NCBI GenBank assembly: GCA_036391385.1
Contig: DASWAA010000232.1
Location: 1-61,727 of the forward strand
DNA: 61,727 nucleotides
Reading direction: 5' to 3'
Source of the DNA: Streptosporangiaceae bacterium
GTDB taxonomy: Bacteria > Actinomycetota > Actinomycetes > Streptosporangiales > Streptosporangiaceae
The notes under the pieces were generated by a model. It was not told the DNA's origin, made no database searches, and was given only the letters and a program-made list of their open reading frames with translations. This document shows, one piece after another, positions 46,458 through 60,412 of this stretch; within the stretch, counting starts at the first letter, position 1, and each line of letters begins with the position of its first letter. The position numbers and the translations under genes were made by a program.

Positions 46458-46758
46458 CCGGCGTGGGCGCCGGCGGCGCCGAAGAATGAACCGGCCCCGG
46501 CCACCGGGTCACTTCGCCGCCGGCGGCGGCACCCTCGGCTAGTCACTGCCACGTGGGCCGAGCAGGCGCCGCCGGCCCCGGTCTCGGCAGCGCCTGCTGG
46601 GCCCTTCGTTCCCGTGACAAGCTTCCCTTCCGGCGAATATTCCTACTAACCTTGTATGTTAGTCGAGAATATAGGAAGATAGCTCGCGGACGGCCTGCCG
46701 GCTGACCTGAGCAGCGGGCAGCCGGCCACGCACGCCAACCCCCTTGCTAGGAGAGCGA

Positions 46759-47877
46759 ATGCGCAAGCTGATGAAGATCGCCGCCAGTGCGGCCGTGCTG
46801 GCAAGCGCCGTGACACTGATCGCGGGCCCGGCCCTGGCCGACCCGGTCAACGGCAGCGGCAGCCCGGTGACGCCAAAGGAGACCGACGTCGTCAGCGTCG
46901 GATCTGACACCAGCGAGTACCTGGTCGACCAGCTGGCGTTCGATTACAACAAGTCGCACTCGACCGGCCCGCGCCTGTACAGCTGGGACGCGGTAAACCC
47001 GGTCACCGGGCTCACCGACAACATCAAGACGAAGTTCGGCTGCACCGCGATCGTGCGGCCGAACGGGGCGACCGCGGGCCTGACAGCCTTCTACGCGAAC
47101 GCGAAGACCAGCGACGGCAAGCACTACTGCATCGACTACGTCCGCTCCGCCCGTGGTCGCAGCTCCACCGACCCGGCGAAGGGGCCGGGCGGGGTGACCT
47201 TCGTCGCCCTGGCCAAGGACGCCATCAGCTACGCGGCCAACGCCACGACCAACGCTCCGCATAACCTGACCACGGCCCAGCTGAACGCGATCTACACCTG
47301 CACCGCCACCGCCTGGAACCAGGTCGGCGGCACGAGCACCGACACCATCCAGGCGTTCCTGCCGCAGACCGGCTCAGGTCTTCGCACGTCCTTCCTCAAG
47401 GCGATCGGCGTCGCAACGCCCGGCTCGTGCGTAAACAGTTCCGTGCAGCAGAACGAGGGGACTGACCCTCAGTTCAAGGGGAACGCCGACGCGCTCGTGC
47501 CCTACTCGGTCGCCAAGTACATCTCACAGCGCTACCACTCCGCCAAGTGCGGCGTGAAGCCGACCGCCACTCAGAACAGGTTCGGCTGCGACGAGCATGG
47601 CGCCTTCATCCTGAACTCCGTCAACGGCACCAAGCCGACGACCGGCACCGGCACCGGCACCACGATCAATCCGCTATTCAGCGCCAAGTTCATCAACGCG
47701 ATCTATGACGTGGTGCGGTGGGCTCAGACCAGGGACAACATCCCGGCCTACCTCGAGCCGTTCTTCGCCTCGGCTTTCGCCACCACCAGGGGCTGGATCT
47801 GCTCGAACACGACCGCCAGGCAGGACCTCATCAACTACGGATTCCTGCCCACGCCCTTCTGCGGCACCGGCTCCTGA
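46759..47877 (+). CDS. Secreted PstS-family (PBP_like_2) substrate-binding protein, Cys-rich, no lipobox
   Basis: ATG 46759 is preceded by AGGAGAG. The signal peptide MRKLMKIAASAAVLASAVTLIAGPALA|DP contains no Cys. PstS-like motifs are VSVGSDTSEYL, NGATAGL, LTTAQLNAIYTCTATAWNQVGG and PQTGSGLRTSF. The mature part has about 10 Cys. Confidence 0.75.
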   Translation: MRKLMKIAASAAVLASAVTLIAGPALADPVNGSGSPVTPKETDVVSVGSDTSEYLVDQLAFDYNKSHSTGPRLYSWDAVNPVTGLTDNIKTKFGCTAIVRPNGATAGLTAFYANAKTSDGKHYCIDYVRSARGRSSTDPAKGPGGVTFVALAKDAISYAANATTNAPHNLTTAQLNAIYTCTATAWNQVGGTSTDTIQAFLPQTGSGLRTSFLKAIGVATPGSCVNSSVQQNEGTDPQFKGNADALVPYSVAKYISQRYHSAKCGVKPTATQNRFGCDEHGAFILNSVNGTKPTTGTGTGTTINPLFSAKFINAIYDVVRWAQTRDNIPAYLEPFFASAFATTRGWICSNTTARQDLINYGFLPTPFCGTGS

Positions 47878-48649: not shown

Positions 48650-49663
48650 GTGGTTGGGAACGTGATGTACGCACCAGCAGTGGACCAGGCTGAGCAGGAC
48701 GTGCCGCGCGTCATAGTCGCCGCGGCCACCGCCGGTGACAGGGTCTTCCGCGGCCTGCTCCGCGCAGCCGGCGTCACCGTGCTGGCCATCACGGTCCTGA
48801 TCCTGGTCTTCCTCGTGCTGCGCTCGGTCAGCGCCTTCCAGCGCGCGGGGCTGGGCTTCTTCACGACGCAGAGCTTCTACCCGGAGACCAGCGACCAGTT
48901 CGGCGTCGCGGCGCTGCTGCCCGACTCGGCGATCATCGCTGTAATCGCGCTGGCCGTCGCCCTGCCGGCGGGCGTGGCGATCGCTATCTATATCTCCGAG
49001 TACGCGCCGCCGCGCCTGCGCGGACCGATGATCGCGGTGGTCGACCTCATGGCGGCCATTCCCAGCATCATCTTCGCGCTCTGGGGCCTGTTCTTCCTGA
49101 TGCCGAGGATTCTCGGCACCGACCAGTGGCTGTCGCGCTGGCTCGGCTCGTTCCTGCCGGTCTTCCAGTTCACCAAGGCTCAGACGCCGGCCAACTACGT
49201 GGGAGCGATGTTCATCGCCGGCTCGGTGGTCTCCCTGATGGTGATCCCGATCATCACCTCACTGTCCAGGCAGGTCTTCTCCCAGGCGCCGCAAGGCGAG
49301 CGGGAAGCCGCCTACTCGCTCGGCTCCACCCGGTGGGGCATGATCCGCACCGTCGTGCTGCCTTTCGGCCGGGCGGGCGTGATCGGTGCCAGCATGCTCG
49401 GCCTGGGCCGTGCGCTCGGCGAGACGATCGCCGTCACCTTCATCCTGACGCCGCTGACCTACACGCTGAACCCGCACATCCTCGAAGGCGGCGGTAACTC
49501 GATCACCGCCGAGATCGCGAACTTCGTGACCCAGTACGACTCCAAGGGCGTCGCCGCGCTGCTGGCCGCCGGCCTGGTGCTCTTCGTAGCGACGCTTATC
49601 GTCAACAGCCTGGCCTCGGTCGTGATCAGCCGATCCCGGTCCGGCGCCCTGACCGCGGACTGA
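48650..49663 (+). CDS. pstC: Phosphate ABC transporter permease PstC
   Basis: It has 6 TM segments and the EAA-loop region ...EAAYSLGSTRWGMIRTVVLPFG...GLGRALGETIAVTFIL typical of PstC. The start could be GTG 48650, GTG 48662 or ATG 48665. Confidence 0.88.
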   Translation: MVGNVMYAPAVDQAEQDVPRVIVAAATAGDRVFRGLLRAAGVTVLAITVLILVFLVLRSVSAFQRAGLGFFTTQSFYPETSDQFGVAALLPDSAIIAVIALAVALPAGVAIAIYISEYAPPRLRGPMIAVVDLMAAIPSIIFALWGLFFLMPRILGTDQWLSRWLGSFLPVFQFTKAQTPANYVGAMFIAGSVVSLMVIPIITSLSRQVFSQAPQGEREAAYSLGSTRWGMIRTVVLPFGRAGVIGASMLGLGRALGETIAVTFILTPLTYTLNPHILEGGGNSITAEIANFVTQYDSKGVAALLAAGLVLFVATLIVNSLASVVISRSRSGALTAD

Positions 49664-49667
49664 TCCG

Positions 49668-50828
49668 ATGACACAGCAGACGCGTGTGCTCGTACCCGTA
49701 CGGCCATCGCCTGACCCCGAAAGTGACCAGCTGCCTGCCGAGAGCCGGCTCCGCCTGCGGCGTGCCACTTCCGAGGGGACCGCGACGTTCGCCGGCGCAG
49801 CGGCCGCGGCCCTCGGCCTGGTCTGGCTGATCTACGAGCGCGTGCTGCCCTTCTCCGGTGCGCTCGGCTTCTGGCTGACCTGGTACGTGGTCTTCCTGGT
49901 GCTGTACACGGTCATGGCGCGGCTGCAGTCAGACCGCCTCGCCGCCAGGGACCAGCTGGCGTCGGTTGCGTTCGGCACGGGCGGCGTCGTGGCCTTCCTG
50001 ATCGTCGTCGAGGAGGTCGGCTACACGCTGCTACGAGGATCCGGCGCCGTCTTCCACCTCAACTTCTGGACTCAGGCGATGTCGTTCGCCGGGCCCGACA
50101 GCCCGATGACGATCGGGGGCGTGCTCCATGCGATCGTCGGATCGCTTGAGCAGCTGGGCATGGCCACCACGATTTCCGTGCCGCTCGGGGTGACCACGGC
50201 ACTGTTCCTCTCCGAGATCGGCGGCGGGCTCGCGCGGACCGTCAGGACCATCGTGGAGGCGATGACGGCCCTGCCTGACCTCATCGCCGGCCTGTTCATC
50301 TACGCGTCGCTCGTGCTCAGCCTCGGTGTCGCCAAGAGCGGGTTCTGCGCGTCGGTCGCCATCGCGGTGACGATGATGCCGATCGTCGCGAGGGCGTCTG
50401 AAGTAGTGCTCCGGCTGATACCCGCAACGATCAAGGAGGCGTCCTGCGCACTGGGCGCCAGTCAGTGGCGCACGGTGTGGAACGTGGTGCTGCCCACCGC
50501 CAGGTCCGGCCTGACGACCGCCGTGGTGCTGGCCATGGCACGCGGTATCGGCGAGACCGCTCCGGTGCTGCTCGTGGCCGGTTACACGAAGGAGCTGAAC
50601 CTCAACCTTTTCAGCGGCCCGCAGACCAGCCTGCCGCTGTTCATCTACGACTCCGTGCATGTGCTCGGCACGAATGCCTATGTCGAGCGCGGCTTCGGGA
50701 CCGGCTTCGTCCTGGTCGTGGTGGTGCTCGCGCTGTTCGCGGCTGCGCGCAGGCTCGGCGGCTCGGCGCCCGGCGAGCTCACCAGGCGGCAGCGCCGCAG
50801 ACTAGCCAGAGAGGCAGCCAGCAGATGA
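49668..50828 (+). CDS. pstA: Phosphate ABC transporter permease PstA
   Basis: The sequence contains KEASCALGASQWRTVWNVVLPTARSGLTTAVVLAMARGIGETAPVLLVAGYT, typical of PstA. It follows pstC after 4 nt. Confidence 0.88.
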   Translation: MTQQTRVLVPVRPSPDPESDQLPAESRLRLRRATSEGTATFAGAAAAALGLVWLIYERVLPFSGALGFWLTWYVVFLVLYTVMARLQSDRLAARDQLASVAFGTGGVVAFLIVVEEVGYTLLRGSGAVFHLNFWTQAMSFAGPDSPMTIGGVLHAIVGSLEQLGMATTISVPLGVTTALFLSEIGGGLARTVRTIVEAMTALPDLIAGLFIYASLVLSLGVAKSGFCASVAIAVTMMPIVARASEVVLRLIPATIKEASCALGASQWRTVWNVVLPTARSGLTTAVVLAMARGIGETAPVLLVAGYTKELNLNLFSGPQTSLPLFIYDSVHVLGTNAYVERGFGTGFVLVVVVLALFAAARRLGGSAPGELTRRQRRRLAREAASR

Positions 50829-53203
50829 CCATTGCCCGGATAAGCAGGGCGGTGCCAGCCATCCTCGGCATCGCCGCCATGAGCGCCGGCATCGTGCTGC
50901 TGCCCGCGGTACCCGGATCGATGGCGGCGACGAGTCCGAGCCCGTCGGCGAGCACCAGTCCGTCCTCTAGCCCGACCGGTAATCCGAGCCCGACCGGCAC
51001 CCCGGGCCCGACCCGCTCTCCCGCTCCCAGCGGGTCCCCCAGCCCGAGTCCGACCAGGTCGCACCACAAGGTGCCCGGAGGCACGACCGTGCCGGGGCCG
51101 CGGATGTGGGACCCGGCGCACCAGAGGCTCTTCCCTGGCCACAGCACCGTGACGGTCAGTCAGACCAGCAGCCTGGTGAACGAGATGGTGCACGTCTCGT
51201 GGACTGGCTTCACGCCGAGCAGCGCGGTGCTCTACGACCAGACGGCCACCGACTACCCGGTCATGGTCGTCGAGTGCAATTCCGCCAGGCCCCGGACCTG
51301 GAAGCAGTGCTATGGCGCCGACAACGGCGGCGTGCAGGGCGCCTTTGGCCCGTTCGGGCCGATGAACGCCGCCTATGCGACAACGGCGCCGAACGGCAGC
51401 GGCGAACTCGACATCCAGATCCTCACTCTGGCCGAGAACCAGATGCTCGGCTGCAGCGTGCGCCACCTGTGCTCGCTCGTCGTCGTGCCGAGCCAGGGCG
51501 GCAACACCCTGACCAGCCCGGCCGGCTGCCACGACCACAGCCTCGACGCCGGCGGCACGGACCTTGGCGAGTTCGCCTTCAGCAGCCAGACCGGCTCTTG
51601 CTCGTGGGCGGACCGGATCGTGGTTCCGCTCGCCTTCGCGCCAGCGCCTGCCAACTGCCCGATCAAGAACGCGAGTTTCACCGCGATCGGCTCGCCGATG
51701 CTGGCCAGGGCCATGAACCAGTGGCGCGCCGGGCTCTGCTCCTCCTCCAGCCCGCTGGCCATCACCTACAACTCGGCCCTGAGCGAACCCGAGGCCATCG
51801 CCGCCCTCCCGAGCGGCCTCGGTGACATAGCGCTGACCACCCGGCCGGGCCCGGCCCAGGTCTCGCCGGGCAAGACCTACACCTACGCTCCGGTCGCCGT
51901 CTCGGCGGTGGCGATCGCTTACTGGGTCGACAACCCGGTCACCGGGAAACCAGTCCGCTCGCTCAGGCTCGACCCGCGACTGGTCGCCAAGCTCGTCACG
52001 CAGTCATACAGCTTCGAGAACGAGGGCTGCGGGCATGGCACGCCGCCGAAGACCATCGGCTGCGACGGCGCGGTCGACGGCAACCCCTTCAGCCTGTTCG
52101 ATGACCCTGAATTCCAGAAACTGAACCCGGGAGTCAGGGCACCAGGCGGAAGCGGTGCGGCCTTCCAGGTTCCCACGGTCGTTTCCGGGCACAGCGACCT
52201 CACCTGGGAAACAACGCGGTGGATCGCGGCGAGCAAAGACGGCAACAGCTTCCTCCAGGGTCAGTTCGATCCCTGGGGAATGCACGTCAATACCGACTAC
52301 CTCGGCATGCATTACCCGACGGACGCCTTCACCGGCCAGGATTCCTATCCGGTCATCGCCCACAAGTACAGCCCGGTCTTCCCGCTCAGCATGGTCGCGA
52401 GCTATCAGGCGCAGAACTGGGACCCGGGCACGGACTGGGAGAAGGACCCGTTCGGAAACTTCCCCAGAGACCCGATCGAGGTGCCGGGTGAGCGCGCGCT
52501 GTTCGCCATCCTGGACGAGGGCGACGCGGCGGCCTTCCGGTTCCCGGTGGCCAGGCTGCTCAACAGCAAGGGCCGCTACGTCGCGCCGGACGCGGCGTCG
52601 ATGGCGGCGGCCATCCCGTCCATGGTCACCAGCCCGGCCAGCCACATCACCCAGCAGGTCGACTACGCCAGCCAGAACGCCAGCGCCTACCCGCTGACGA
52701 TGGTCATCTACGCTATGGTCCCGACCAGCGGCGTCAAGCCCGCCAAGGCAGCCTCGATCGCCAGGTTCCTGGACTACGTCGCCGGACCCGGCCAGACCCC
52801 CGGTGCCCGGCCCGGTCAGCTCGCCCCTGGTTACCTGCCGCTCCCGGCGAACCTCAGGGCGCAGACCCGCACCGCGGCCGCCGAGGTGCTGAGCCAGTCA
52901 GGCGGCAGCGCGAATCCGAGCCTGGGGCAGTCCGCCAGCCCAAGCCTGCCGGCCATTCCCAGCACGAGCCCGGCGGCGAGCCCGTCCCCGAGCCGGCTCG
53001 GCCAGGCAATCGTGACGGTCGCGCTGAAGCGGGCGCAGACGGCGGGCCTGATCAGGTACGCGCTCCCCGTCCTGCTCGTCGTCGCAGGCGCCGCCACCCT
53101 CAGCGGAGCCTCGTCTCTCATGCTCGGTGCGGCCGACGCCGCGACGCGGACCCGGCTGCGGCGCCTGCGGCAGATCCGCCTGACCTGGAGGAGAAAGCCA
53201 TGA
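50825..53203 (+). CDS. Large secreted, C-terminally TM-anchored protein: PST-rich linker, Cys-containing beta-domain, degenerate PstS-like domain
   Basis: ATG 50825 overlaps the pstA stop (ATGA). The signal peptide is followed by SPSPSASTSPSSSPTGNPSPTGTPGPT. The PstS-like C-terminal half contains YPLTMVIYAMVPTSG, ARFLDYVAGPGQ and GYLPLPANL, but has VVSGHSDLTWETTRW where RSDGSGTT is expected. The C-terminus is a hydrophobic helix plus TRTRLRRLRQIRLTWRRKP. Confidence 0.75.
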   Translation: MTIARISRAVPAILGIAAMSAGIVLLPAVPGSMAATSPSPSASTSPSSSPTGNPSPTGTPGPTRSPAPSGSPSPSPTRSHHKVPGGTTVPGPRMWDPAHQRLFPGHSTVTVSQTSSLVNEMVHVSWTGFTPSSAVLYDQTATDYPVMVVECNSARPRTWKQCYGADNGGVQGAFGPFGPMNAAYATTAPNGSGELDIQILTLAENQMLGCSVRHLCSLVVVPSQGGNTLTSPAGCHDHSLDAGGTDLGEFAFSSQTGSCSWADRIVVPLAFAPAPANCPIKNASFTAIGSPMLARAMNQWRAGLCSSSSPLAITYNSALSEPEAIAALPSGLGDIALTTRPGPAQVSPGKTYTYAPVAVSAVAIAYWVDNPVTGKPVRSLRLDPRLVAKLVTQSYSFENEGCGHGTPPKTIGCDGAVDGNPFSLFDDPEFQKLNPGVRAPGGSGAAFQVPTVVSGHSDLTWETTRWIAASKDGNSFLQGQFDPWGMHVNTDYLGMHYPTDAFTGQDSYPVIAHKYSPVFPLSMVASYQAQNWDPGTDWEKDPFGNFPRDPIEVPGERALFAILDEGDAAAFRFPVARLLNSKGRYVAPDAASMAAAIPSMVTSPASHITQQVDYASQNASAYPLTMVIYAMVPTSGVKPAKAASIARFLDYVAGPGQTPGARPGQLAPGYLPLPANLRAQTRTAAAEVLSQSGGSANPSLGQSASPSLPAIPSTSPAASPSPSRLGQAIVTVALKRAQTAGLIRYALPVLLVVAGAATLSGASSLMLGAADAATRTRLRRLRQIRLTWRRKP

Positions 53204-54795
53204 TCCCTCGTCTGCTTCGGGCTCGGGCACGAATGGCGGCCGCCACGCTGGTCGCTGTCGGAGCGGTCGCGGCGGCCGCGCCGCCGGCGAGAGCGGTGAG
53301 TTACGTCGCGATCAGCGGCTCTGGCTCGTCCTGGAGCGCGGTAGCGCTCGACCAGTGGCAGCAGGACCTGCGGCCCAGCGGCCTGGTCATCAACTACAAC
53401 CCGGACGGCTCGGCGGCCGGCCGCGGTGACTACATGGCCAACCAGGATGACTTCGCCGCATCGGACCCACCCTTCCGAAACGGCCAGGATCAGCTCGGCG
53501 GAACCGGGGCCGAGCATCCGACCCAGGGTTACTCCTACATACCTGACACCGCCGGCGGCACCGCGTTCATGTACCACATCGATGTCGCCGGAAAGCTGGT
53601 CACGAACCTGCGGCTCTCGGGCCTGACCCTGATGAAGATCTTCACTGGCGCGATCACCAACTGGGACGACCCGGCGATCACCAGGGACTACGGCGCCCAG
53701 CTTCCGAGCCTGCCGATCACGCCGGTGATCAGATCGGACGGATCAGGGGCCACGTTCTTCTTCACGCGCTGGATGGCGCACATGTTCCCGGCGCAGTGGA
53801 ACGCGTTCTGCCAGAAGGTGAAGCCGGGCATCCGCCTGCCCTGCGGCCAGACCGAGTTTTACCCGCTGTTCGGAAACGCCAAGTCCGAGAACGGCTCCAA
53901 CAACGTGGCCACCTACATCACGGCCAGCTACGGAAACGGCTCCATCGGCTATGACGAGTACGCTTATGCTCTGAATTCCCACTATCCGGTCGTTAAGCTG
54001 CTCAACCCGGCCGGCTACTACGTGCTTCCTACCGCATCGAACGTGGCCGTCGCGCTCACCCAGGCGCAGATCAACGAGAACCCGGCCAGCCCTGACTTCC
54101 TCCAGCAGAACCTGGACTCGGTCTACACCTACACCGACCCGCGCTCCTACCCGCTGTCCAGCTACAGCTACCTGATCGTGCCGCGGGCCGGCAGCCACCA
54201 GCCGACAAACTTCACCGCGGCCAAGGGGCGGACACTGAGCACCTTCGTCGACTACCTGCTCTGCTCCGGCCAGCGCGAGGTTGCGGCTCTCGGATACTCG
54301 CCGCTGCCGCTGAACCTGGTCAAGGGCGGCCTCCTGCAGAACTCCAGGATCCCCGGCGCCGTGCCAGGGCCCAGCCCCACGACGCTGGCCGGATGCAGCA
54401 ACCCGACCTTCACGGGCGGCCAGCTCACCCTGCTGACCACGGCCCCGCAGCCCTCACCGTGCGACAAGCTTGGCGAGCCGCTCGACTGTGTGGTCGTCAA
54501 CGGGAAGGCGGCCACTCCGGGCGCCGCCGGAACATCGCCGTCCGCGGACGCCTCACCCGGCGCGGCCTCTCCGTCCGGCGGCGCTATCCCCGCCGGACCG
54601 GTGACCGGTACGTCTGGCCCGTCCGGACCGCAGGCCCCGCTCGCCGTTACTCCGGTCGTCGTGAACGTCGCGGCCAGCGGCCCTAGCAAGCTGGTGCTGA
54701 GCGTGCTGACCGCGCTTGCCATCGTCTGCGCCGTGATACTGCCGCCCGCGCTCGGCGGATGGCTGCGCCGCCGGCGCCGTCAGGGACTGGGCTGA
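53200..54795 (+). CDS. PstS-family substrate-binding protein with C-terminal TM anchor (no lipobox)
   Basis: ATG 53200 overlaps the upstream stop (ATGA) and is preceded by GGAGGAG. Motifs are ISGSGSSWS, PDGSAAGRGDY...DFAASDPPF, IFTGAITNWDDPAI, VIRSDGSGATFFFTRW, SYPLSSYSYLIVP and GYSPLPLNL. It ends in a Pro/Ser/Gly linker, then LVLSVLTALAIVCAVILPPALGGW plus RRRRRQGLG. Confidence 0.8.
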   Translation: MIPRLLRARARMAAATLVAVGAVAAAAPPARAVSYVAISGSGSSWSAVALDQWQQDLRPSGLVINYNPDGSAAGRGDYMANQDDFAASDPPFRNGQDQLGGTGAEHPTQGYSYIPDTAGGTAFMYHIDVAGKLVTNLRLSGLTLMKIFTGAITNWDDPAITRDYGAQLPSLPITPVIRSDGSGATFFFTRWMAHMFPAQWNAFCQKVKPGIRLPCGQTEFYPLFGNAKSENGSNNVATYITASYGNGSIGYDEYAYALNSHYPVVKLLNPAGYYVLPTASNVAVALTQAQINENPASPDFLQQNLDSVYTYTDPRSYPLSSYSYLIVPRAGSHQPTNFTAAKGRTLSTFVDYLLCSGQREVAALGYSPLPLNLVKGGLLQNSRIPGAVPGPSPTTLAGCSNPTFTGGQLTLLTTAPQPSPCDKLGEPLDCVVVNGKAATPGAAGTSPSADASPGAASPSGGAIPAGPVTGTSGPSGPQAPLAVTPVVVNVAASGPSKLVLSVLTALAIVCAVILPPALGGWLRRRRRQGLG

Positions 54796-54800
54796 GCCGC

Positions 54801-55694
54801 GTGTCGGAGATCCAGGTCACGGTAGATCCCAGGGTAGATCCCAGCCCGGTCGCGCTCACCCCGAGCCCTGGCCGCAGGAATGGCGCCAGTTCCTGGCCGC
54901 ACGGGGCTGGAGTCGGGCTGACCCTGCTCGGCGTCTTCCTGCTCGGTTTCCTGGCGTACCTCTATGCCGCCTCAGGCATCCAGGAGGCTCGCGCGCAGTC
55001 GACCGCCTTCGCCACCTTCAGGTATGAGCTTGGCCAGCAGACGGCGCCGCTGGACGCGGTGACGCCTGGCACGCCAGTCGCGCTGCTTGACATCCCGGCG
55101 ATCGGCATCCAGAACATGGTCGTCGTCGAGGGGACCGCTCCGGAGAACCTCACGCTCGGGCCTGGCCACCTGCGTGACTCGCCACTGCCCGGAGAAAGCG
55201 GAGTGTCGGTGATCCTCGGGCGGCGTGCCACCTTCGGCGCGCCGTTCGGCCGGCTGCCCGGGCTGCGCCGTGGTGACAAGATCACGGCGATCACCGGCCA
55301 GGGCAGGGCCTCGTACACGGTCATGGCCATCGGCGACAGCGGACACCTCGTCGAGGACCCGGCACCGAACCGGCTGCTGCTTGTCACCGCCTGCTCGGCG
55401 GCCGTGCCCACCTCGTACTGCTATTTCGATGCCGATCTCACCTCCGCTCCGCAGACCGACCCGGGCGGGCGCCCGCCGATCACGGCTGCCGAAACACCGC
55501 TGAGCGGTGACAGCAGTGCCCTGGTGCTCGCCCTGGTTTGGGGCCTGGCCCTGGTGATCATCTCGGCGGCCGGCACCGTCGCCGCCGCACGCTGGTCGCC
55601 AGGGCTTGCCTACCTGGCCGCTACCCCCCCGGCGCTGGCCGTGCTGTGGAACCTCTATCAGAGCCTCGCGGCGCTGCTGCCGAACGTGTACTGA
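54801..55694 (+). CDS. Sortase-fold membrane protein (class E-like) apparently lacking the catalytic His and Arg
   Basis: GTG 54801 lies 5 nt after the upstream stop. There is an N-terminal TM helix ([21 protein letters not shown]). The sortase-like core reads [30 protein letters not shown]...[32 protein letters not shown]...[10 protein letters not shown]. There are extra C-terminal hydrophobic helices. Confidence 0.65.
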
Positions 55695-55744: not shown

Positions 55745-56557
55745 ATGATGCCAGCCAAGTTTCCCGCGGATGTCGACTGCGCACAGCAGCTTTCCGGCCT
55801 GACCGCGCAGGACGTGTCGGCCTGGTTCGGCGACCGCAAGGTGCTCGACCGGGTGTCACTGACCATGAATCCCGGTACGGTCACCGCCTTGATCGGCCCG
55901 TCTGGCTGCGGAAAGTCGACCTTCCTGCGCGTCCTGAACCGGATGCACGAGATGGTCCGCGGTGCCTCGCTCGCTGGCCAGGTGCTGCTCGACAGCACTG
56001 ACATCTACGATCACGCGCAGCGGCCGACCGAGGTCAGGCGGCGGATCGGAATGGTCTTCCAGAAGCCGAACCCGTTCCCCGCGATGTCCGTCTACGACAA
56101 CGTGGCCAGCGGGCTCAAGCTGGCCGGAATCAAGGTCAGCGACAAAGACGGCCTGGTCGAGACCAGCCTGCGCCGAGCAGGGCTGTGGCACGAGGTGCAC
56201 AGGCGACTGCGGGCCCCGGGCGCATCACTATCCGGCGGCCAGCAGCAGCGGCTGTGCATCGCCAGGGCGCTTGCGGTATCGCCCGACGTCCTGCTGATGG
56301 ACGAGCCATGCTCTGCGCTCGACCCGACATCGACGCGGCGGATCGAGGACACCATCGCCGAACTGCGCGATCAGGTCACCATTGTGATCGTCACGCACAA
56401 CATGCAGCAGGCTGCTCGGGTATCGACAGAGTGTGCGTTCTTCCTCGCAACCGAGCAGGCTCCCGGCCACATTGTCGAGGCGGGCCCGACGGAGCAGGTA
56501 TTCGGGGCACCGGCTGACCCGCGGACGGCCGACTACGTGCATGGCAGGTTCGGCTAG
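55745..56557 (+). CDS. pstB: Phosphate ABC transporter ATP-binding protein PstB
   Basis: ATG 55745 is preceded by GGGAGAG. It has the Walker [24 protein letters not shown], the signature [14 protein letters not shown], the Walker [21 protein letters not shown] and the PstB-type C-terminus DYVHGRFG. Confidence 0.93.
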
Positions 56558-56712
56558 CCGGGAACTTGCGGACGCAGCACGAGGGCCCCGATCTAAGCCG
56601 GGGCGATATAGCGGTATTCGCCGCGTGCGATTGGGGAATGGGGACTGGTGCGCCTCGGCTGGCAGTTCTAAGTTGGCATCAGGCGCATCAGCCGTCTCGG
56701 AGGAGCCAGCGC

Positions 56713-57180
56713 ATGACCCAGATCAAGGTAACGGTCGACGGTGTCAGCTACGCCGACCAGGTAGAGCCCCGGCTATTGCTTGTTCATTATCTCAGGGACG
56801 TGCTCGGCAAGACCGGCACGCCAGTCGGCTGTGACACGTCCAACTGCGGCGCGTGCACGGTGCTGATGGATGGCGTCTCGGTCAAGAGCTGCTCTGTGCT
56901 GGCCGTGCAGGCCGACGGCACCGACATCACCACCATCGAGGGCCTCGCCAACGGCGAGTGGCACCCGCTGCAGAAGGCGTTCCACGAGGAGCACGCGCTC
57001 CAGTGCGGCTACTGCACGCCTGGAATGATCCTGGCGGCGGCCGACCTGCTGCGGGACAACCCGAACCCGACCGACGAGCAGATTCGCGACGGACTCGAGG
57101 GGAACCTCTGCCGCTGCACTGGTTACGAGCACATCGTCCGCGCCGTTCGGCGCGCCGCGCAGGCAGGAGCGGGCCAATGA
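56713..57180 (+). CDS. (2Fe-2S)-binding small subunit of a xanthine-dehydrogenase/CODH-family molybdoenzyme (CoxS-like)
   Basis: ATG 56713 is preceded by GGAGGAG. The sequence contains [16 protein letters not shown]...SC...ITTIEGL...[10 protein letters not shown]...[12 protein letters not shown]. Confidence 0.92.
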
Positions 57181-59558
57181 CCACGACCGCTGAGTCACCA
57201 GCCGCCGAAATTGGCCGGGCCCGCCGGCGCAAGGAAGACGCCAGGCTGGTCACCGGTCAGACCACCTGGACCGACAACCTGACACTGCCGGGGATGCTGC
57301 ACATGTGCTTCGTGCGCAGCCCGTACGCGCACGCCAAGATCACCTCTGTCGACGTCAGCGCCGCCCGCGAGATGCCCGGCGTGGTCGCCGCGTTCTCCGG
57401 AGCTGACTTCGCCGACGAGCAGGGCAGCCTGCCGTGTGCCTGGCCGGTCACCCCCGACATCGTGATACCGCCGCACCCGCCGATGGCGACCGACGAGGTC
57501 CGTTATGTCGGCGAGGCTGTGGCCGTCGTGATCGCCAGGGACAGGTACGCCGCCGCCGATGCCGTAGCCGGCGTCGACGTGAACTACGAGCCGCTCGAGC
57601 CGGTACTCGACATGCGCACCGCGCTGGAGGAGAACTCGCCGAAGGTGCACGAGGCCGGGAACAAGAGCTACGAGTGGGTCTTCGCCAACGGCGACCTGGA
57701 CGCGGCGTTCTCCGGCGCGCCCGTCGTCCTCGAGCGCACCTACCGGCAGCAGCGACTGATCCCGTCCGCGATGGAGCCGCGATCGGTCGTGGCGTCCTGG
57801 CTCGGTGACGACGTCACGCTCTGGTCGGCCACCCAGATACCGCACGTGCTGCGGTTCGCGATCGCGGCGTTCTTCGGGATCCCCGAGCAGTCGATCCGGG
57901 TGATCGCGCCGGACGTGGGCGGCGGCTTCGGCTCCAAGCTCCAGGTCACCGCCGAGGAAGTCCTCTCCGTGCTGATCTCGCGCAGGCTCGGCCGGCCAGT
58001 CAAGTGGACAGAGTCGCGCAGCGAGGGCAACCTGACCGTGCACCACGGCCGCGACCAGTGGCAGCGGATCAAGATCGCCGCTGATAGCGACGGCCGCATC
58101 CGCGGCCTGAACGTCGACCTGCTCGCCGACATGGGCGCATACCTCATGCTGGTCACTCCCGGCGTGCCGCTGCTCGGCGCCTTCATGTTCCCTGCCATCT
58201 ACAAGATGGACGCCTACTCGTTCAAGTGCACCGGTGTCTTCACCACCAAGATGCCGACCGACGCGTACCGCGGCGCGGGCCGCCCGGAGGCGACCTTCGC
58301 CATCGAGCGGATCATGGACGAGCTTGCCACCGAAATCGGCGTGGACCCGCTCGAGATCCGCGAGCGGAACTGGATCAAGCACGAGGAGTTCCCCTACACC
58401 ACGATCTGCGGTCTGACCTACGACTCGGGGAACTACGAGGCAGCGACCGCCCGTGCCAGGGAACTGTTCGGCTACGACGCTCTGCGAGCGGAGCAGGCGG
58501 AACGAAACGCCCGGGGTGACACGGTCCGGCTGGGTATCGGCGTCTCGACTTTCACCGAGATGTGCGGCCTGGCTCCGTCCCGCGTCCTAGGCAGCCTGGC
58601 CTACGGGGCCGGCGGCTGGGAGCACGCCTCGATCAGGATGCTGCCGACCGGCAAGGTCGAGGTGGTCACCGGATCGAGCGCTCACGGCCAGGGCCACGAG
58701 ACGGCGTGGAGCCAGGTCGTGGCCGATCAGCTCGGCGTCCCGTTCGAGGACATCCGGGTTCTGCACGGCGACACCCAGATCTCGCCCAAGGGAATGGACA
58801 CCTACGGCTCGCGGTCGCTCGTGGTCGGCGGCATGGCCCTGGTCGGCGCCTGCGACAAGGTGATCCAGAAGGGCAAGGTCATAGCCGCGCACATGATGGA
58901 GGCCAGCGAGAACGACATCGAGTTCGTCTCCGGGCGGTTCCAGGTACGCGGCGACCCCGAGAACGGGCGCTCGATCCAGGAGGTCGCGCTCGCCACCTTC
59001 GCGGCGCACAACCTGCCCGACGGTGTCGAGCCATCGCTCGATTCCGACGCGACGTACGACCCGGACAACTTCTCCTTCCCGCACGGCACCCACCTGTGCG
59101 CGACCGAGGTAGACACCGAGACCGGGATGGTGAAGATCCGCTCGTACGTAGCGGTGGACGACGTCGGCGTGGTCGTCAACCCGCTGATCGTGGACGGCCA
59201 GGTACACGGCGGCATCGCCCAGGGAATCGGCCAGGCCCTGTACGAAGAGGCGGTCTACGACGATGCGGGCAACCTGCTGACCACGACCCTGGCTGACTAC
59301 CTGGTGCCCTCGGCGGCCGATCTGCCGTCGTACGTCACCGAGCGGACGGTGAGCCCGGCGGCGAACCGTCTCGGCGTCAAGGGCGTCGGCGAGGCCGGAA
59401 CGATCGCCTCGACACCGGCCGTGGTGAACGCCGTCGTCGACGCGCTACGCCCGTTCGGAGTCAGGGACGTGACGATGCCGTGCTCGCCCGAGCGCGTCTG
59501 GCGCGCGATCGAGGCGGCCCGCAGCGGCGCGGCGAACAGCAACGGAGGTGCGGCATGA
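57177..59558 (+). CDS. Molybdopterin-binding large subunit, form-II CoxL-like (AYRGAGR active-site loop)
   Basis: ATG 57177 overlaps the small-subunit stop (ATGA). The N-terminus reads RRKEDARLVTGQ..W.DN. The active-site loop PTDAYRGAGRPEA maps to 58254..58292 (AYRGAGR = 58263..58283). Confidence 0.9.
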   Translation: MTTTAESPAAEIGRARRRKEDARLVTGQTTWTDNLTLPGMLHMCFVRSPYAHAKITSVDVSAAREMPGVVAAFSGADFADEQGSLPCAWPVTPDIVIPPHPPMATDEVRYVGEAVAVVIARDRYAAADAVAGVDVNYEPLEPVLDMRTALEENSPKVHEAGNKSYEWVFANGDLDAAFSGAPVVLERTYRQQRLIPSAMEPRSVVASWLGDDVTLWSATQIPHVLRFAIAAFFGIPEQSIRVIAPDVGGGFGSKLQVTAEEVLSVLISRRLGRPVKWTESRSEGNLTVHHGRDQWQRIKIAADSDGRIRGLNVDLLADMGAYLMLVTPGVPLLGAFMFPAIYKMDAYSFKCTGVFTTKMPTDAYRGAGRPEATFAIERIMDELATEIGVDPLEIRERNWIKHEEFPYTTICGLTYDSGNYEAATARARELFGYDALRAEQAERNARGDTVRLGIGVSTFTEMCGLAPSRVLGSLAYGAGGWEHASIRMLPTGKVEVVTGSSAHGQGHETAWSQVVADQLGVPFEDIRVLHGDTQISPKGMDTYGSRSLVVGGMALVGACDKVIQKGKVIAAHMMEASENDIEFVSGRFQVRGDPENGRSIQEVALATFAAHNLPDGVEPSLDSDATYDPDNFSFPHGTHLCATEVDTETGMVKIRSYVAVDDVGVVVNPLIVDGQVHGGIAQGIGQALYEEAVYDDAGNLLTTTLADYLVPSAADLPSYVTERTVSPAANRLGVKGVGEAGTIASTPAVVNAVVDALRPFGVRDVTMPCSPERVWRAIEAARSGAANSNGGAA

Positions 59559-60412
59559 TCCCGGCCAAGTTCGACTACGTCAGGGCAGGCTCGGTCGACG
59601 AGGCAGTGCGGGCGCTGGCCGAAGGCGGCGAGGACGCCAAGGTCATCGCGGGCGGGCAGAGCCTGCTGCCGCTGCTGCGCCTGCGGCTCGCCAACCCGGA
59701 CCTGCTCGTCGACATCGGCGGTATCGACGAGCTCCGCGGCGTCATCGATCACGGCGACTCGCTGCTGATTGGCGCTCGGACCACGCACTATCAGGTCGTG
59801 CACGACCCGCTGATCGGCGAGCACTGCGGGCTCCTCGCGGAGGCTGCGGCGACAGTGGCCGACCCGGCCGTCCGGCACCGCGGTACGCTCGGCGGCTCGC
59901 TGGCCCACGCCGACCCAGCCGGTGACCTTCCGGCCGTGGTGCTCGCGCTCGGCGCCACCATGGTGGCGCGCGGTCCCGGCGGCGAGCGCGAGATCGCCGC
60001 GTCAGACTTCTTCGTCGACTACCTGACCTCCGCACTCGACCCCGGAGAGATCCTGACCGGGGTACGGGTACCCAAGCTCGGCGGGGACTGGGGCTATCGT
60101 TACGAGAAGTTCCACCGGACCGCGCAAGCCTGGGCGATCGTGGGCGTGGCCGCTCTGGCCAGGCGCTCGAACGGGCACGTTGCGGAGGCCAGGATCGGGC
60201 TGACCAACATGGGGTCGGTTCCGGTCAGGGCCAGCGCGGCCGAGGCGGCCGCTGCGGGCGCCGAGGCAACCCGCGAGGCGCTCAGCGCCGCTGCGGCGGG
60301 CGCGGCCGATGGCACTGAACCACCGGCGGACCTGCACGGAGCGCCCGACTACCGGCGTCACCTTGCCCAGGTCCTGACCGGCCGAGCATTGGCAGCGGCG
60401 GCAGGAGCTTAA
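59555..60412 (+). CDS. FAD-binding medium subunit (CoxM-like)
   Basis: ATG 59555 overlaps the large-subunit stop (ATGA). The sequence contains FDYVRAGSVDEAV..L....DAKVIAGGQSLLPLLRLRLA...HRGTLGGSLAHADPAGD. Confidence 0.9.
   Translation: MIPAKFDYVRAGSVDEAVRALAEGGEDAKVIAGGQSLLPLLRLRLANPDLLVDIGGIDELRGVIDHGDSLLIGARTTHYQVVHDPLIGEHCGLLAEAAATVADPAVRHRGTLGGSLAHADPAGDLPAVVLALGATMVARGPGGEREIAASDFFVDYLTSALDPGEILTGVRVPKLGGDWGYRYEKFHRTAQAWAIVGVAALARRSNGHVAEARIGLTNMGSVPVRASAAEAAAAGAEATREALSAAAAGAADGTEPPADLHGAPDYRRHLAQVLTGRALAAAAGA

Follow-up and report, generated by a model that had tools for sequence, protein, structure and literature searches.

The 61,727-nucleotide stretch considered here (positions 1 to 61,727 of contig DASWAA010000232.1, assembly GCA_036391385.1, from a Streptosporangiaceae bacterium; hereafter the window) contains a cluster of genes for a Pst-like ATP-binding cassette (ABC) transporter, in which a forward-strand gene at 54801..55694 encodes a membrane protein with a sortase fold. 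An earlier note on this DNA described the product as a sortase-like protein that keeps the nucleophilic cysteine and lacks the catalytic histidine and arginine, and it offered two interpretations, a pseudo-sortase that provides a scaffold or binds substrates and an enzyme with rewired chemistry. The comparisons described below indicate that the cysteine is replaced as well as the other two residues, and the protein is termed a pseudo-sortase, that is, a sortase homolog judged from its sequence to be catalytically dead. It may act without catalysis, as an accessory subunit or tether of the tail-anchored binding proteins that are encoded beside it.

Gene Product and Fold

The pseudo-sortase gene, which is supported by the list of open reading frames (ORFs), Pfam, AlphaFold2 (AF2), Foldseek and the ratio of nonsynonymous to synonymous substitution rates (dN/dS), specifies 297 amino acids (aa) from a GTG codon at 54801, and residues are numbered from this codon throughout. 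An in-frame ATG at 54759 is an alternative start that would lengthen the product by 14 residues to 311 aa. The N-terminal membrane anchor (residues ~36-57; 54906..54971) is visible as a hydrophobic run in the sequence, preceded by Arg24/Arg25, and AF2 predicts a long N-terminal helix (residues 32-78) that comprises the anchor and a stalk extending to residue 78. The extracytoplasmic sortase-fold β-barrel occupies residues ~90-215 (55068..55445) and is supported by the AF2 strands (92-98, 103-110, 135-139, 160-165, 168-179, 191-197 as β7 and 206-213 as β8), by Foldseek and by hhalign. Two extra C-terminal membrane helices (residues 239-264 and 267-292; 55515..55676), connected by a short RWSP loop, are predicted by AF2 with a predicted local distance difference test score (pLDDT) of ~96, and the protein terminates in the conserved sequence LPNVY (LLPNVY; 55677..55691; family consensus LLPNL[YL]). 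All of these features lie on the forward strand.

Pfam Sortase (PF04203) matches residues 96-199 on profile positions 1-108 of 125 with 49.8 bits against a cut-off of 26.6. The NCBIfam model class_E_sortase (NF033747) matches only residues 42-176, with 66.6 bits against a cut-off of 160, and is not reached; the protein scores far under the cut-off of every curated NCBIfam sortase class. The AF2 model that was used, built on an alignment of 103 diverse family members, has a pLDDT of 92.2 and a predicted template modeling (TM) score of 0.84, and an alignment of 24 close homologs gave a pLDDT of 47. In a Foldseek search of the Protein Data Bank (PDB) with this model, only sortases appear among the top 50 matches listed. 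The best of those listed are Clostridium perfringens SrtD (4d70; TM score 0.79) and Streptomyces avermitilis SrtE (5go5; TM score 0.72, root-mean-square deviation 3.0 Å), and class C sortases also occur among the matches. Profile and predicted structure thus confirm the sortase superfamily fold proposed in the earlier note, and its observation of extra C-terminal helices is borne out by the model.

Replacement of the Catalytic Residues

Four comparisons were used to map the sortase triad onto the pseudo-sortase: the family profile against the PDB class E sortases 5go5, 5go6 and 5uus; an hmmalign alignment of four canonical class E sortases to the family model; a profile-profile alignment by hhalign (probability 99.86%); and the MAFFT alignment underlying the phylogenetic tree. 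The canonical class E set consisted of four sequences from loci of relatives and the 5go5 fragment. All four comparisons give the same mapping. The catalytic His falls on Arg141 (codon cgg, 55221..55223), which makes GRR of the canonical GHR; the Cys of the TLxTC motif falls on Ala197 (55389..55391), the last residue of β7; and the catalytic Arg falls on Tyr206 (55416..55418), the first residue of β8. Cys198 and Cys207 each follow one residue later. The segment around Arg141 aligns on VAGHRRTYGDPF of 5go5 and on the matching segment of 5uus, and Arg141 also aligns on the GHR of the four canonical class E sortases from the genomes of relatives. Between Leu192 and Leu213 the alignment of canonical sortases with the family is free of gaps, and the family consensus in this region, RLTLVT[S/A], reproduces the canonical LTLxTC pattern. 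A match of Cys on Cys is found only in a single short pairwise stretch, with a non-significant score of -3.5.

As the profile comparisons put Arg141, Ala197 and Tyr206 at the triad positions, no catalytic residue stands at its place, and all three are replaced. The His-to-Arg substitution and the lack of an Arg had been read correctly in the earlier note, and a profile alignment, which it had proposed as a check, places no His at the catalytic His position and no Arg at the catalytic Arg position of what is nonetheless a sortase fold. Its claim that the nucleophile is kept does not hold. Cys198 as a retained nucleophile is ruled out by the four alignments, which place the canonical Cys on Ala197.

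The Cys198-Cys207 Pair

Cys198 (55392..55394) lies one residue past the old nucleophile position, and its partner on the β7-β8 hairpin is Cys207 (55419..55421). The two residues are present together in all 24 close homologs and never singly. Sister sequences carry Gly, Ala or Glu at position 198 and Val, Leu, Ile, Thr, Met or Gly at position 207. Proteins of the Cys-Cys (CC) clade contain exactly two cysteines in 20 of 24 cases, and 14 of 20 sisters contain none at all. Among the 133 aligned family sequences described in the next section, the window's protein is the only one with any Cys at positions 196-199, and in the tree the CC clade is monophyletic and nested inside the Cys-less family with a Shimodaira-Hasegawa-like approximate likelihood ratio test (SH-aLRT) support of 97. 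Alignments and tree show that Cys198 and Cys207 were gained as a pair, once and late, in the window's clade. The pair probably forms a disulfide that staples the β7-β8 hairpin, which is the simplest reading because two co-gained cysteines are situated in an extracytoplasmic domain and on two strands of one hairpin.

These observations bear on the second interpretation in the earlier note, in which the protein would be an active enzyme with rewired chemistry, using Cys198 as a nucleophile with the help of Arg141 or His123 and processing the neighboring anchored PstS-like proteins. Cys198 is indeed invariant in the window's clade and is located beside the old active site, and His123, which belongs to the GPGH motif, is conserved in 124 of the 133 family sequences. 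However, active class E sortases conserve GPGH as well, in addition to a separate His that serves catalysis. Moreover, Cys198 is one residue off the canonical position, was gained late within a Cys-less family that has the same operon context, and is always accompanied by Cys207 in proteins otherwise free of cysteine, which is the signature of a disulfide. For these features of Cys198, rewired thiol chemistry through a kept nucleophile is unsupported, and an enzyme of this kind is considered improbable. The first interpretation, a pseudo-sortase serving as a scaffold or substrate-binding module, is favored because the triad is replaced, Cys is absent family-wide, the gene is under purifying selection, and it resides in a Pst-like operon with tail-anchored proteins.

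Family, Phylogeny and Selection

An exhaustive search of 1.84 billion representative sequences retrieved 4440 relatives, including 220 at an expectation value (E) of <=1e-30, and for nearly all of them the alignment extended through the final residue of the query. The family, a large one, amounts to 220 clusters at 50% identity. The aligned set of 133 sequences comprises 131 full-length representatives (one per 50%-identity cluster), the window's protein and a paralog from contig C419 of the same genome. The His-to-Arg substitution and the loss of the Arg, which the earlier note had proposed to look for in relatives, are both shared: position 141 is Arg in 116 sequences, Lys in 8 and His in 9, and position 206 is Arg in only 33 and otherwise Val, Thr, Ala, Ser or Tyr. 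The Cys position (197) is occupied by Ser in 60 sequences, Ala in 54 and Gly in 7, and by Cys in none. An intact catalytic triad was not found in any of the 133 aligned family sequences. A Cys-less nucleophile position (133 of 133) together with Arg, Lys or His at the His position is the defining pattern of the family. The window's protein exhibits it (R141, A197), and it also shares the other family features, namely two C-terminal transmembrane (TM) helices ending in LLPN-x-[YL] and the context of a Pst-like cluster. Dozens of columns are invariant or nearly so across the family, including the C-terminal LLPN end (Pro294 in 131 and Asn295 in 96 of the 133 representatives), and the C-terminal helices are kept to the last residue in nearly all members.

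A maximum likelihood tree (quick search, SH-aLRT support only) was rooted on the four canonical class E sortases. Members with His-[Ser/Ala]-Arg at the three positions branch deepest, followed by Arg-Ser-Arg, Arg-[Ala/Ser]-[Thr/Val] and Arg-Ala-Tyr members, with the CC clade of the window's protein nested among the last. This branching order indicates that the Cys was lost first, then the His and finally the Arg. The deepest-branching combinations are rare, His-Ser-Arg being found in five and His-Ala-Arg in two of the 133 sequences (P0252, P0262, P0176, P0223 and others), and from their residues such members are possible intermediates or serine variants. It could be imagined that members bearing Ser, especially the deep His-Ser-Arg proteins, still cleave, and that the window's protein is a further-decayed relative of serine-type enzymes. 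The frequency of Ser at the Cys position and the deep placement of the five His-Ser-Arg members agree with this idea. However, Ala is almost as common at that position and also occurs in His...Arg backgrounds, and the window's protein itself has Ala, so the idea is irrelevant to the activity of its own gene; it is regarded as very improbable.

The distribution of the family was surveyed by a profile search of 301 genomes drawn evenly from the class Actinomycetes. At E<=1e-40, members were found in 74 of the 301 genomes and in 45 of the 151 genera, and most of their matches extended to the profile's C-terminal end. Comparison of the window's gene with orthologs of 71-80% amino-acid identity yielded dN/dS values of 0.15-0.25. 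The loss of all catalytic residues might suggest a decaying, functionless pseudogene of a class E sortase, but the ORF is intact, the AF2 model is confident and synteny is fixed, and decay is refuted by the conservation described above (the dN/dS values, the dozens of invariant columns and the presence in 45 of 151 sampled genera), so its probability is practically negligible. The gene is real and under purifying selection.

Triad-less members from Kitasatospora, Yinghuangia and Streptacidiphilus (P0288-P0361) bear the names "class E sortase", "sortase" or "sortase A" in NCBI and JGI records. This naming is likely a systematic misannotation, and the labels "class E sortase" and "sortase A" inflate sortase counts and misdirect substrate predictions in Kitasatospora and many soil actinobacteria. 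No papers on pseudo-sortases, Cys-less sortases or sortase homologs in pst operons were found in the literature searched.

The Pst-like Gene Cluster

The pseudo-sortase gene is situated among forward-strand genes for a Pst-like transporter. The cluster begins with a gene for a first PstS-like binding protein (46744..47877; PBP_like_2, 37.8 bits), and a small secreted protein is encoded between it and the gene for a PstC-like permease (48650..49663), which is followed by that for a PstA-like permease (49668..50828). Both permeases match BPD_transp_1, and these three transporter genes are syntenic in relatives. A 788-aa protein (50837..53203) contains a partial PstS-like C-terminal domain (TIGR00975, 53 bits, residues 568-682) and ends in a TM helix and a basic tail. 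Its gene type is present in the cluster at nearly all loci, and the tail is conserved. The upstream partner of the pseudo-sortase is a 531-aa PstS-like binding protein (53200..54795), which scores 113 bits with PBP_like_2 and 168 bits with TIGR00975, under the cut-off of 205. A gene for a PstB-like ATPase (55745..56557; ABC_tran, 123.5 bits; TIGR00972, 335.4 bits, just under the cut-off of 343.2) lies directly downstream of the pseudo-sortase gene.

The synteny was assessed in 80 loci of named genomes, retrieved with a 12-sequence alignment as the query and derived from Streptosporangiaceae metagenome-assembled genomes, Trebonia, Actinocrinis, many Kitasatospora and some Streptomyces sp. The Pst-like gene set surrounds the homolog in all of these loci with enough flank. 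Where the flank is long enough, nearly all loci of the window's type and of the Kitasatospora type have a 531-aa-type gene directly upstream of the pseudo-sortase gene. A PstB-like gene follows the pseudo-sortase gene in all loci of the window's type. The cluster also surrounds the homolog in 20 diverse Actinomycetes genomes, where gene order varies; in more diverse genomes, a gene for a Big-like protein is inserted between the 531-aa-type gene and the pseudo-sortase gene. Directly after the PstB-like gene, the window contains a coxS/L/M-type molybdenum hydroxylase cluster (56566..60412), which stays at this place in most Streptosporangiaceae-type loci (L004-L045) and is not seen there in Kitasatospora.

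C-Terminal Tails of the Partner Proteins

The two large PstS-like neighbors, the 788-aa and 531-aa proteins, both have a hydrophobic helix followed by a basic tail at the C-terminus. The tail of the 531-aa protein consists of VVNVAAS..., the TM segment LSVLTALAIVCAVILPP and RRRRR, and it is conserved in ~80 loci, with the consensus ...VTGQVVNVAA..P.K.LLSVLTALAI..AV..PP.LG.WLRRRRR for tails of this type. A [DN]PxTG motif, the PxTG core of which resembles LPXTG, is present in 41 of 81 tails at a distance of 66-77 residues from the C-terminus, as compared with three instances in 36,544 residues of the protein bodies. This motif was counted with the body control because a looser PxTG filter was confounded by low-complexity linkers rich in Gly, Pro and Thr. 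Tails corresponding to that of the window come from loci L046-L085 and L117-L133. Those of Kitasatospora and of most diverse genomes start with [DN]PxTG, and members of the window's clade have a shortened form of the motif, (GP)VxVTGQVV.

Judged from these motifs, the partner tails appear to be relics of sortase sorting signals whose enzyme partner turned non-catalytic. As such, they support, without proving, the idea that the barrel and the membrane helices still recognize them.

The tail of the 788-aa protein (53050..53203) has a pattern of its own, a conserved juxtamembrane G..R[YFL].LP at the start of the TM helix followed by a long basic tail. In close relatives, the tails of Big-like proteins (L004-L085 and L116-L135) carry A-Q-T-[AS]-G or N-P-x-T-[ST]-G before this juxtamembrane pattern.

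Related Genes Elsewhere in the Genome

Contig C408 of the same genome (5804-6745 and 8544-9287) carries a canonical pstS with 349 bits and a canonical pstB with 346.8 bits, each exceeding its NCBIfam cut-off. A canonical class E sortase of 245 aa with intact His, Cys and Arg (AAHD, LITC and YR motifs) is encoded on contig C75 (L001:1252-1989). Because the canonical pstS and pstB sit elsewhere in the genome, the window's cluster is regarded as an accessory Pst-like system, and, given the canonical class E sortase as well, the pseudo-sortase is neither the housekeeping sortase nor a part of the housekeeping Pst system. The gene of the canonical class E sortase directly follows a membrane glycosyltransferase-like gene. 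The other sortase genes observed in the loci of relatives (L089-L113) are mostly class F-like (LRLITCGG...), and few are class E.

A second pseudo-sortase paralog of 317 aa, 39% identical to the first, is encoded on contig C419 (L003:1180-2133; L115:3289-4236). Its His position is occupied by Arg, and the protein is devoid of Cys (VTTAGTGW). Genes for a tail-anchored Big-like protein and a PstS-like protein flank the paralog in a second copy of the accessory cluster, to which a PstB-like gene on contig C442 and an SBP2-like gene on contig C80 probably also belong.

The coexistence of an active class E sortase with the pseudo-sortase could point to a decoy or guard function, in which the dead sortase would shield the tails of the PstS-like proteins from the active enzyme so that these proteins stay anchored in the membrane and are not linked to the cell wall. 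The relic PxTG motif in many partner tails would fit such a function as well. However, the partner tails have no LAxTG motif as found in class E substrates, and even PxTG is gone in the window's clade; a guard function has, in our estimation, only a small chance of being correct.

Proposed Role

In the mechanism proposed here, the barrel would no longer cut. Instead, the old substrate groove and the three membrane helices would hold the C-terminal tails of the neighboring binding proteins non-covalently, and this holding would keep the PstS-like proteins at the membrane and dock them to PstC/PstA as a fixed accessory subunit. The general reading, in which the non-catalytic pseudo-sortase assists or tethers the tail-anchored binding proteins as a subunit, is suggested by sequence and analogy and is assigned a probability of about 0.6. 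A more specific version pictures a sortase turned receptor, the dead barrel of which still clamps the relic sorting signals and, with the three membrane helices, would be permanently built into an accessory phosphate-type ABC importer as its docking subunit, with a hairpin locked by the disulfide in the window's clade. This version is tentative and is put at somewhat less than an even chance; if true, it would represent the first sortase pseudoenzyme with a defined non-catalytic job.

The same synteny and the same conservation of the tails would also be expected of a transient assembly factor, the barrel of which recognizes the tails only during biogenesis (membrane insertion, folding or hand-over to the transporter) and is not a stable subunit of the transporter. 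Sortases by nature bind their substrates transiently, which suits such a role. However, the strong conservation of the two additional membrane helices, together with an invariant LLPN end, suggests fixed intramembrane contacts, and a purely transient factor is considered unlikely.

Several points weigh against a non-catalytic tethering subunit. The tethering role is drawn from synteny, tail conservation and analogy. The tail of the window's own 531-aa protein (54540..54795) reads VTPVVVNV, in which the PxTG core is lost, and any motif recognition would need other features of the tail. With respect to catalysis, Cys198 adjoins the old active site and an Arg can in principle serve catalysis, which leaves room for residual chemistry, and the 45% of family members that have Ser in place of the Cys give a small chance of serine-based activity in some of them. 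As for the putative disulfide, Cys198 and Cys207 would be diagonal in an ideal antiparallel hairpin and not directly cross-strand.

Sortases have been treated as uniformly catalytic, and a large, conserved branch without the triad, present in about one quarter of the Actinomycetes genomes sampled, suggests that the fold also has a non-enzymatic use. The family offers a stepwise natural record of the passage from enzyme to pseudoenzyme, in which Cys, His and Arg were lost in turn and a new Cys pair was then acquired. What the window adds to this record is a Cys that is a paired, clade-specific gain and not the ancestral nucleophile, the order of triad loss, and the apparent [DN]PxTG relic in the partner tails. 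Cultured carriers such as Kitasatospora make a role in accessory phosphate-type uptake directly testable.

Comparison with Known Systems

The window's cluster resembles the phosphate importer PstSCAB in that PstC-, PstA- and PstB-like genes and genes for PstS-like binding proteins form one operon. In contrast to PstSCAB, the binding proteins are tail-anchored and are not lipoproteins, and the operon additionally encodes the 788-aa protein and the pseudo-sortase. A further actinobacterial ABC uptake locus with extra membrane or cell-wall binding proteins is the znu cluster of Corynebacterium diphtheriae (ZnuABC with ZnuE/F/G), for which one extra protein with a sortase signal and one that is localized independently of the six known sortases are described (PMC12445094). 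The znu cluster differs from the window's cluster in its transporter family and its ligand, and the abstract mentions no sortase homolog in that locus (PMC12445094).

Among sortases, the best matches in both sequence and structure are class E enzymes, i.e., SrtE from S. avermitilis (5go5/5go6), SrtE1 from Streptomyces coelicolor (5cuw), SrtF from C. diphtheriae (5uus) and SrtE from Thermobifida fusca (9iok). The pseudo-sortase has in common with them the N-terminal anchor, the GPGH and G-x-R-x-T-[FY]-G-x-PF motifs and a β7-β8 loop of eight residues. Unlike these enzymes, it has a replaced triad and two extra C-terminal TM helices with the LLPN end, and it is encoded in a Pst-like ABC operon and not together with LAxTG surface proteins. 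Class C (pilin-polymerizing) sortases likewise possess a barrel with N-terminal and C-terminal membrane segments, whereas their C-terminal helix is single, they possess a lid and an intact triad, and their genes lie in pilus gene clusters. With its missing triad and its Pst-like operon context, the pseudo-sortase is not a member of this class.

Pairs of a dedicated sorting enzyme and a tripartite C-terminal signal are well represented by sortase/LPXTG, exosortase/PEP-CTERM and rhombosortase/GlyGly-CTERM. As in such pairs, the neighbors of the pseudo-sortase gene encode proteins whose C-terminus combines a short motif, a TM helix and a basic tail. The pseudo-sortase departs from these pairs in having no catalytic residues, and the motif, which is [DN]PxTG in relatives, has degenerated or disappeared in the window's clade. 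A functional parallel is provided by iRhoms and Derlins, which are catalytically dead membrane proteins of the rhomboid fold that still bind clients. They are eukaryotic, have an unrelated fold and are not homologous to the pseudo-sortase, so the likeness is one of function only: a dead membrane enzyme fold that is conserved and presumably binds clients.

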